From NCBI RefSeq assembly GCF_003334385.1, contig NZ_QOWN01000200.1: a DNA stretch of 333 nucleotides; one strand, 5' to 3'. Source of the DNA: Escherichia coli (GTDB lineage Bacteria; Pseudomonadota; Gammaproteobacteria; Enterobacterales; Enterobacteriaceae). The translations under genes and the position numbers were made by a program. The notes under the pieces are model-generated. The model searched no databases. It worked only from the letters and a program-made list of their open reading frames with translations, and was not told the origin of the DNA. Within the stretch, counting starts at the first letter, position 1. Every line of letters begins with the position of its first letter. Shown here piece by piece: positions 1-333 of this stretch.

Positions 1-212
1 CCGGCACGCCAGACCGCAGTCACACCGTGTATCACGGGATTACCGTCCGTGTCCGTCAGCGGGGTTTTGTTCACCAGGATACTCTGCAGTCCCTTCACCG
101 GGCCTTCTATCGGTCCCTCACCAATGGCATCAATCACACTCATCATCTGCGTGGATTTGAGATTATCCTTCGCCTCACGCGGTGTGTGCCCCTTGCCGCC
201 CCCTTTACCCAC
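1..212 (-). CDS. J: Phage host-specificity / central tail fibre (tail tip) protein, lambda gpJ-like; N-terminal 70 codons only, 3' end runs beyond the window
   Basis: Minus-strand translation from GTG at +212..210 gives MGKGGGKGHTPREAKDNLKSTQMMSVIDAIGEGPIEGPVKGLQSILVNKTPLTDTDGNPVIHGVTAVWRA with no stop before the window edge. This closely matches my memory of the lambda gpJ N-terminus (MGKGSSKGHTPREAKDNLKSTQLLSVIDAISEGPIEGPVDGLKSVLLNSTPVLDTEGN...). A purine-rich Shine-Dalgarno sequence lies just upstream. GC is about 59% by hand count. Start choice is by homology; the same frame stays open further upstream but contains no better start. Confidence 0.85.
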   Translation of the reverse strand, partial: MGKGGGKGHTPREAKDNLKSTQMMSVIDAIGEGPIEGPVKGLQSILVNKTPLTDTDGNPVIHGVTAVWRA

Positions 213-216
213 TCTG

Positions 217-228
217 TCCCCCTCTCCT
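217..228 (-). promoter_or_regulatory. Ribosome-binding site (Shine-Dalgarno) for the J-like CDS
   Basis: Minus-strand sequence AGGAGAGGGGGA (AGGAG at +224..228) lies 5-11 nt upstream of the GTG start at +210..212. Confidence 0.5.
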
Positions 229-255
229 GTCTGATGTCTGAATCTGTTTATGCCC

Positions 256-287
256 AAAAAACAACAGGCACCCCGGAGGATGCCTGT
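256..287 (-). terminator. Rho-independent (intrinsic) terminator, minus-strand orientation
   Basis: Minus-strand RNA reads 5'-ACAGGCAUCC-UCCG-GGGUGCCUGU-3': a 10-bp GC-rich stem with one G.U wobble and a tetraloop, followed at once by UGUUUUUU then GGG. On the plus strand the hairpin is preceded by an A-tract and not followed by a T-tract, so it is unidirectional for minus-strand transcripts. Confidence 0.65.
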
Positions 288-333
288 ATCATGACTGAAT
301 AAAAATTCTGAATATCTTCACATTTTCACAAAC

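Follow-up and report, generated by a model that had tools for sequence, protein, structure and literature searches.

Four G-tracts on one strand of an Escherichia coli prophage cover both the ribosome-binding site (RBS) and the GTG start codon of gene J, and the question they raise is whether they form a regulatory G-quadruplex (G4) or simply reflect a G-rich Shine-Dalgarno (SD) sequence followed by glycine codons. The initial annotation of the site had proposed that a quadruplex folded in the mRNA or in the template DNA could modulate J translation or transcription, and had offered as an alternative that the tracts are incidental to the purine-rich RBS and the Gly/Lys codons. The region analysed is a 333-nt stretch of DNA, referred to throughout as the window, in which J lies on the minus strand.

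Identity of the window

By megablast, 1,888 of 5,426 complete E. coli genomes contained prophage matches to the window at 97–99% identity, and the gene over the matches was always labelled gpJ, "phage attachment tail tip protein J" or host specificity protein J (gpJ annotation at the window match in 1900 E. coli records). The window was also matched by 172 phage records, most of them Stx1/Stx2-converting phages. No complete E. coli genome was 100% identical over the full window (best 99.4%); a 66-nt core does reach 100%, and 532 of 778 matching complete-genome E. coli records, O157:H7 EDL933 included, carry it at 99% identity or more, the core search listing 2,517 E. coli places in all. Against PHROG profiles, the 70 amino acids encoded in the window matched phrog_31 "central tail fiber J" (E 8e-35) and phrog_1727 (E 1.5e-36), and N-terminal profile homology thus places the protein in the J family. 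Two annotated relatives were used, E. coli 14EC001 (L001) and phage PhiR12_2 (L002); the first 400 aa of the L001 J allele matched phrog_31 at E 6e-251. Both relatives show the lambda-type tail-module synteny (H-M-L-K-I-J-lom/stf), with the order tape measure, M, L, K (C40 peptidase), I, a spacer of ~249 nt, J and Lom/tail fibre, and RefSeq/GenBank annotation places the J start of both exactly at the GTG.

Translation of tail-tip protein J, in a lambdoid or Stx-type E. coli prophage, begins in this segment, and a J start at the coordinates of the motif is already known and annotated. Read 5' to 3', the minus strand runs from the end of a non-coding spacer through a strong hairpin, a U-run and a purine-rich stretch to the GTG and an ORF that runs off the window (Table 1); the initial annotation was right about the RBS, about J and its GTG start, and about an N-terminus reading MGKGGGKG. 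Two plus-strand ORFs with GTG starts (27–302, 91 aa; 49–234, 61 aa) were set aside, being antisense to the strongly supported J frame and without support as genes.

Table 1. Coordinates of features in the window (position 1 is the first base of the plus strand).
Feature	Position	Strand	Basis and remarks
5' end of J (tail-tip / central tail fibre gene, first 70 codons)	1..212	-	gpJ annotation and PHROG matches
Codons 4-8, GGG GGC GGC AAG GGG (Gly-Gly-Gly-Lys-Gly), holding G-tracts 3 and 4	189..203	-	codon comparison
Canonical G4 motif GGGGGACAGAGTGGGTAAAGGGGGCGGCAAGGGG, four G-tracts, loops of 7, 4 and 6 nt	189..222	-	regular expression and G4Hunter 2.0; polymorphic among close relatives
GTG start codon of J	210..212	-	annotated start in L001 and L002; aligns with the ATG of other alleles and of lambda
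Shine-Dalgarno region GGAGAGGGGG	218..227	-	G5 (222-218) is G-tract 1 and SD core; duplex with the 16S 3' tail
J-sense intrinsic terminator-like hairpin, ACAGGCAUCC UCCG GGGUGCCUGU, then UGUUUUUU	256..287	-	terminator scan
Putative -35 box TTCACA of the PasB promoter	325..330	+	promoter scan; transcribed away from J, with the -10 box and the RNA beyond the window end

Geometry and score of the G-tract motif

Seen on the plus strand, the tracts are C5 (218–222), C3 (208–210), C5 (199–203) and C4 (189–192), each flanked by non-C bases, and the tract coordinates and the loop lengths of 7, 4 and 6 nt given in the initial annotation proved correct on checking. A regular expression for four G3+ runs with loops N1-7 found exactly one locus in the window, on the minus strand at 189–222, in agreement with the claimed canonical fit; the same expression found no canonical G4 motif on the plus strand of the window. 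The reported overlap with both SD and start codon also holds, with the GTG at 212–210 and the G5 run at 222–218 lying 5 nt upstream of it. The G4 prediction that had been suggested as a check was run with G4Hunter and gave 2.0 over the 34 nt of the motif and 1.8–2.0 in 25-nt windows; at the level of sequence, the site thus combines four G3+ runs and loops of 1–7 nt with a score above the usual 1.2–1.5. The thresholds for in-vitro folding that Bedrat et al. are said to have set in 2016 lie well below 2.0. On this score, folding of the motif in vitro is plausible, and such folding would not show function.

Coding content and chance expectation

The start of J reads GTG GGT AAA GGG GGC GGC AAG GGG CAC (M G K G G G K G H), and its translation begins MGKGGGKGHTPRE. 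Tract 2 (208–210) is made of the last G of GTG and the GG of codon 2 (GGT, Gly2), tract 3 of GGG (Gly4) and the GG of Gly5, and tract 4 of the last base of AAG (Lys7) and GGG (Gly8). Since GGG makes up 19% of the Gly codons of this J, its use for two of five glycines here is unremarkable.

Recoding was carried out with the SD held and codons 2–12 redrawn synonymously, and among such recodings of MGKGGGKGHTPR the G4 motif persisted in 35% under J codon usage and in 42% under uniform usage. Dinucleotide-preserving shuffles of the window produced a J-sense motif of this type in 689 of 20,000 cases (3.4%). As a bare sequence event the motif is moderately rare; once SD and peptide are taken as fixed it is not rare, and at 35–42% of recodings and 3.4% of shuffles it does not occur beyond what composition and coding lead one to expect. 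A general link between the coding of Gly-rich or RGG proteins and RNA G4 (rG4) motifs is described in PMC11789052.

Related prophage DNA (1.03 Mb) contained 128 motifs of this type, 59 of which are this very site, corresponding to a density of about 0.07–0.12 per kb and of ~0.07 per kb outside this site. Nearly all the other motifs (L083–L190) have the form GGGxCCxxxGGGxCCxAAGGG, which reads as Gly-rich repeat coding (G-x-x-G). These repeat motifs lie downstream of J, and we take them to be collagen-like repeats, probably of tail-fibre genes.

Conservation among J alleles

The closest J N-termini (82 loci, 97–100% protein identity over 300 aa) carry the motif in 5 of 82 cases. In the 77 loci without it, the upstream region is one of several unrelated types, J begins with ATG, and the codon string is GGT GGC GGY AAG GCR. 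A set sharing the same SD was obtained by searching IMG/VR contigs with a degenerate pattern for this SD plus GTG, which returned 108 viral contigs; the motif was present in 59 of them and absent from 49. Of the latter, 47 have both a synonymous GGG>GGT change at Gly4, which breaks tract 3, and Gly8Ala (codon 8 being GCG or GCA), which breaks tract 4 and turns it into GGCG/GGCA; the remaining 2 have lost tract 4 alone. The alternative haplotype of codons 4–8 is GGT GGC GGY ARG GCR (G-G-G-K/R-A). Over 49 nt of J start RNA, the motif haplotype reads AGACAGGAGAGGGGGACAGAGUGGGUAAAGGGGGCGGCAAGGGGCACAC and the natural non-motif haplotype ...AAAGGUGGCGGCAAGGCGCAC.

It had been suggested that conservation of the tracts be checked at synonymous positions across J homologues, and the outcome speaks against the quadruplex, as homologues keep Gly4 yet break tract 3 in 47 of the 108 same-SD contigs. 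G-tracts conserved at synonymous sites across homologues, the pattern by which selection on them would be recognised, are not seen. The 15-nt coding string GGGGGCGGCAAGGGG is identical in 59/59 motif-bearing contigs, which therefore appear to carry one haplotype spread by descent and recombination and not the product of repeated gains. Where the motif coding haplotype stands behind a different SD (AAAGGGTGACGCAATG, in L194 and L196), the first loop is 9 nt long and the canonical motif is lost. No G4 motif was present at the J starts of E2348/69 PP6 and lambda, or in any of the other upstream alleles of the same J N-terminus that were compared. Being common yet absent from many same-SD relatives, the haplotype is evidently tolerated and equally dispensable.

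Shine-Dalgarno pairing and predicted folding

All pairing energies between the 16S 3' tail (ACCUCCUUA) and J starts were calculated with RNAduplex. Over the 22 nt upstream of the start, a 7-bp duplex (GAGGGGG) was predicted at -11.1 kcal/mol, ending 4–5 nt before the GUG, and was stronger than the duplexes of four other J alleles including lambda (-6.8 to -7.4). The site therefore has what a bacterial SD requires, a purine element complementary to 16S rRNA 4–9 nt before a start codon that aligns with those of homologues, and the identical SD is also found in non-G4 haplotypes. Without G4 terms, Watson-Crick folding of 51 nt around the start gave nearly no structure (MFE -2.0 kcal/mol, z +0.9), as expected of an open, accessible ribosome-binding site.

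With the G4 terms of ViennaRNA, the three-tetrad RNA quadruplex as proposed was marginal at -2.0 kcal/mol, three Gs per tract leaving a total of 19 nt in loops, and the SD:anti-SD duplex was predicted to be far more stable than this fold. The same model put a compact two-tetrad G4 (GG-N-GG-N-GG-NAA-GG, -4.8 kcal/mol) into codons 4–8 of the MFE structures of the two haplotypes alike, with or without the motif, at similar ensemble energies. Since this two-tetrad alternative is open to both, the haplotype difference barely alters the predicted ensemble, and the model, a crude one, gives no reason to suppose that the two haplotype-defining substitutions would switch a structure on.

The SD G-tract itself varies among loci, being G5, or G6 in L001 (4109–4114) and L132, and reading CAGGGAGAGGGGG in L197. 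Homopolymer phase variation was considered and rejected, because the G5/G6 variants are confined to the non-coding SD tract and the tracts were judged too short for slipped-strand switching. A CsrA-type GGA site in ACAGGAGAG was likewise rejected as a poor fit, by eye, to the ACARGGAUG consensus. An Rfam scan of the I-J spacer and the J start (E up to 1) found no known RNA family covering the G-tracts, and the sub-threshold hits were chance matches (Hrs1, 19 bits where the gathering score is 56; archaeal snoRNAs).

Neighbouring elements of the I-J spacer

Upstream of the SD, the J-sense hairpin has a 10-bp stem and a UCCG loop (-18.7 kcal/mol, z -3.4) and lies 44 nt before the GTG, within the late tail operon (L001 4047–4078, plus strand). 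E2348/69 and L194 keep it while replacing U.G by C-G in the stem, and lambda has an unrelated hairpin and U-run at the equivalent place between I and J. One possible role of the hairpin is to shield J, lom and stf against stray transcripts in the lysogen, with Q-modified polymerase reading through it during lytic growth. When window 213–255 (minus strand) is compared with L191 1163–1196 and with L194, the alleles are near-identical through PasB and the J-sense terminator, fully divergent over ~40 nt that contain the SD, and similar again from J codon 1, the start being GTG in some and ATG in others. In alignment, this collapse and return of similarity has the form of a typical mosaic junction.

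On the strand opposite J, the I-J spacer encodes PasB, a known Hfq-dependent prophage sRNA. The Northern probe for PasB of EPEC E2348/69 (AATCCCGCAGTGATCGCGGAGCT; PMC8550237 table S6; Pearl Mizrahi et al. 2021) matches 23/23 in L001 (3886–3908) and in E2348/69, at the terminator region, and the published coordinates (NC_011601 1466343–1466261, minus strand) put PasB between the tail assembly gene and gpJ. Probe, coordinates and opposite-strand orientation between the tail assembly gene and J thus all agree, and the position fits the statement, in the preprint of Zhu, Shabalina & Storz (2026), that PasB is embedded in a phage structural-gene operon. The PasB region corresponds to L001 3880–4009 (opposite J) and, in E2348/69, to L191 962–1044, and the window's spacer shares with E2348/69 the same synteny of tail assembly protein, PasB on the opposite strand, and J. 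The promoter scan gave a near-consensus sigma-70 promoter (TTCACA-16-TATAAT, 11/12 matches), with an intrinsic terminator ~80–95 nt downstream of it. Because the best -10 box stands 22 nt ahead of the published 5' end of the 83-nt RNA, an extra ~15 nt may belong to the primary transcript, or else a weaker TAGTGT -10 may be in use. AgvB, AsxR and other EHEC prophage sRNAs were rejected as the identity of the spacer RNA, since Tree et al. 2014 places them near Q/PR' and not in the tail module.

Across ~100 loci, the PasB segment beside the terminator is hypervariable (L001 3909–3925; variants GGGGACAGACAAATG, GGGAGAGAACGATG, GGGAACAGAAAATG, GGGAAATAAACGATG, GGGAAGAGATACGAAG and GGGAGCGTTACGAAG), in contrast to a conserved promoter and terminator. 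The variation, which seems larger than the "few nucleotide differences" mentioned in the 2026 preprint, may represent seed diversification. In L001 and L002, the PasB sequence 5'-UCUGUCCCC-3' is perfectly complementary to GGGGACAGA, which comprises the SD G-tract and the spacer; the same 9-mer is also a direct repeat on the J-sense strand. By hand estimate, the chance probability is ~0.01. Pairing between PasB and the J start was nevertheless rejected, since over ~190 loci the PasB part is hypervariable (GGGAGAGAACG, GGGAACAGAAA and GGGAAATAAACG among the variants) without co-varying with the J start, most identical start regions stand beside non-complementary PasB, and the GGGGACAGA PasB variant occurs beside unrelated starts, which points to chance or mosaicism. 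The 9-bp repeat was also rejected as a target-site duplication of a PasB module, its first copy lying inside the PasB terminator stem, so that the "insert" would lack the terminator. PasB lies almost wholly outside the window, with just its putative -35 box inside, and bears no consistent relationship to the G-tracts.

Explanations for the G-tract cluster

The G-tract cluster is very probably the ordinary initiation region of J together with its first eight codons, and its fit to the G4 consensus a by-product. The G5 run is the core of a strong SD that pairs with the 16S rRNA 3' tail, and 5 nt of spacer lie between this run and the GTG; tracts 2–4 come from the third base of GTG with codon 2 and then from the GGG codons of Gly4 and Gly8 in a Gly/Lys-rich N-terminus (MGKGGGKGH); and the match to the quadruplex consensus would be what SD and coding constraints and one particular codon haplotype produce between them, an unselected structure. 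The incidental origin that the initial annotation had named as its alternative is borne out by the recoding test, by the other prophage motifs and by the SD duplex. Its main proposal, a quadruplex that modulates J translation or transcription, does not survive the synonymous breaks of tract 3 (GGT at Gly4 in 47 of 108 contigs). A regulatory quadruplex at the J start is not supported, since the motif is not conserved, is accounted for as a by-product of coding and is of marginal modelled stability, and we infer that quadruplex-dependent regulation is absent in vivo. The site then matters little in itself, and serves as a worked example of a perfect G4 consensus at a bacterial start that can be fully explained by a G-rich SD and glycine codons and that close relatives discard.

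Three other explanations were weighed against this one. A lineage-specific rG4 attenuator, in which a three-tetrad fold would hide SD and GUG and keep J synthesis low, is unlikely, even though low synthesis would suit J, a protein required at just three copies per virion. Its canonical pattern and G4Hunter score of 2.0 are offset by long loops (7/4/6 nt, 19 nt in total at three Gs per tract) and by a motif that is expected in ~35–42% of recodings anyway. The motif spans SD and start codon exactly, and the start region has no competing Watson-Crick structure, but the fold is modelled at -2.0 kcal/mol against -11.1 for the SD:anti-SD duplex. Both substitutions that separate the haplotypes create G-tracts, and the haplotype is widespread in STEC prophages, common and no rare accident; yet all 59 carriers share a single haplotype with no sign of independent gains, and the motif is missing from 45% of same-SD contigs, from all other J upstream alleles and from lambda, with a synonymous codon at Gly4. 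Precedent also favours the attenuator, as SD-proximal rG4s repress E. coli reporters according to PMC11087576, and folded rG4s are reported to persist in bacteria in PMC10801317 (citing Guo & Bartel 2016). The fuller claim, that in hundreds of STEC prophages (EDL933 included) a K+-dependent rG4 in the late mRNA masks SD and GUG and throttles low-copy J, is distinctly unlikely. If true, it would supply a rare natural SD-masking RNA quadruplex in an E. coli phage, in a host whose transcriptome is reportedly depleted of rG4s, and the two haplotypes would provide test and control, the GGT/GCG form being the natural "off" state.

It is very improbable that a small two-tetrad rG4 in codons 4–8, common to most J alleles, slows early elongation or initiation. 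The GGNGGNGGNAAGG string occurs in most alleles and the fold is in the ViennaRNA MFE of both haplotypes at -4.8 kcal/mol, but the string is dictated by the peptide G-G-G-K-(G/A) and is lost where the peptide differs (GKGSSKG in lambda, GKSGGKA in L077), and the energy model is crude. Two-tetrad rG4s are weak. A DNA quadruplex on the non-template strand, affecting transcription, R-loops or recombination at the I-J/J junction during late transcription or replication, is extremely improbable. The G-rich strand is indeed the non-template (J-sense) strand of J, and the motif adjoins the mosaic junction, where allele similarity collapses between terminator and start codon; module junctions are, however, equally present where the motif is missing, the motif itself is not conserved, and no data tie it to a particular junction, L194 and L196 combining the coding haplotype with another SD. 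Lambdoid phages in general have module junctions at their gene boundaries.

Comparison with known systems

Lambda J is the same gene in the same position after the tail-assembly gene I, with the same N-terminal pattern M-G-K-G-x-x-K-G-H-T-P-R-E, and shares the AAG GGG CA(Y) codons of tract 4 and the (A/G)TGGGT of tract 2. Its start (ATG GGT AAA GGA AGC AGT AAG GGG CAT) differs in that ATG follows a GAGG-type SD and Ser-Ser (AGC AGT) stands where the window has Gly-Gly, leaving two G3+ tracts and no G4 motif, and its I-J spacer is 60 nt long, against 249 nt with PasB in the window's allele.

Among regulatory systems, PMC11087576 reports that an rG4 near the SD inhibits translation in E. coli and that far-upstream G4s can enhance it. 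The engineered SD-proximal rG4s cited there (Wieland & Hartig 2007; Holder & Hartig 2014) resemble the present site in placing a sense-strand G4 that overlaps or abuts SD and start, an arrangement which, according to the same paper, blocks 16S-SD pairing. The J site differs from them in its 7/4/6-nt loops, its marginal modelled stability and its evolutionary dispensability. The engineered Hartig constructs are said to be short-loop, very stable G4s with folding and effect both measured. An SD-masking rG4 is a legitimate mechanism in principle, and nothing site-specific supports one at J.

In PMC10801317 (citing Guo & Bartel 2016 and Shao et al. 2020), rG4s are reported to be depleted in bacteria yet able to stay folded. 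The natural rG4 regulators cited there (Shao et al. 2020; rG4-seq; hemL, bswR) have in common with the J start a G-rich gamma-proteobacterial mRNA that is foldable in principle; the hemL and bswR rG4s were identified experimentally and validated by mutation, whereas the J site fails the conservation test. A likeness in origin may be drawn to Gly-rich G4 coding (PMC11789052; collagen-like Gly-X-Y repeats of phage tail fibres), where clustered GGN glycine codons likewise generate G-tracts automatically, with the difference that at J three of the four tracts are coding and tract 1 is the SD.
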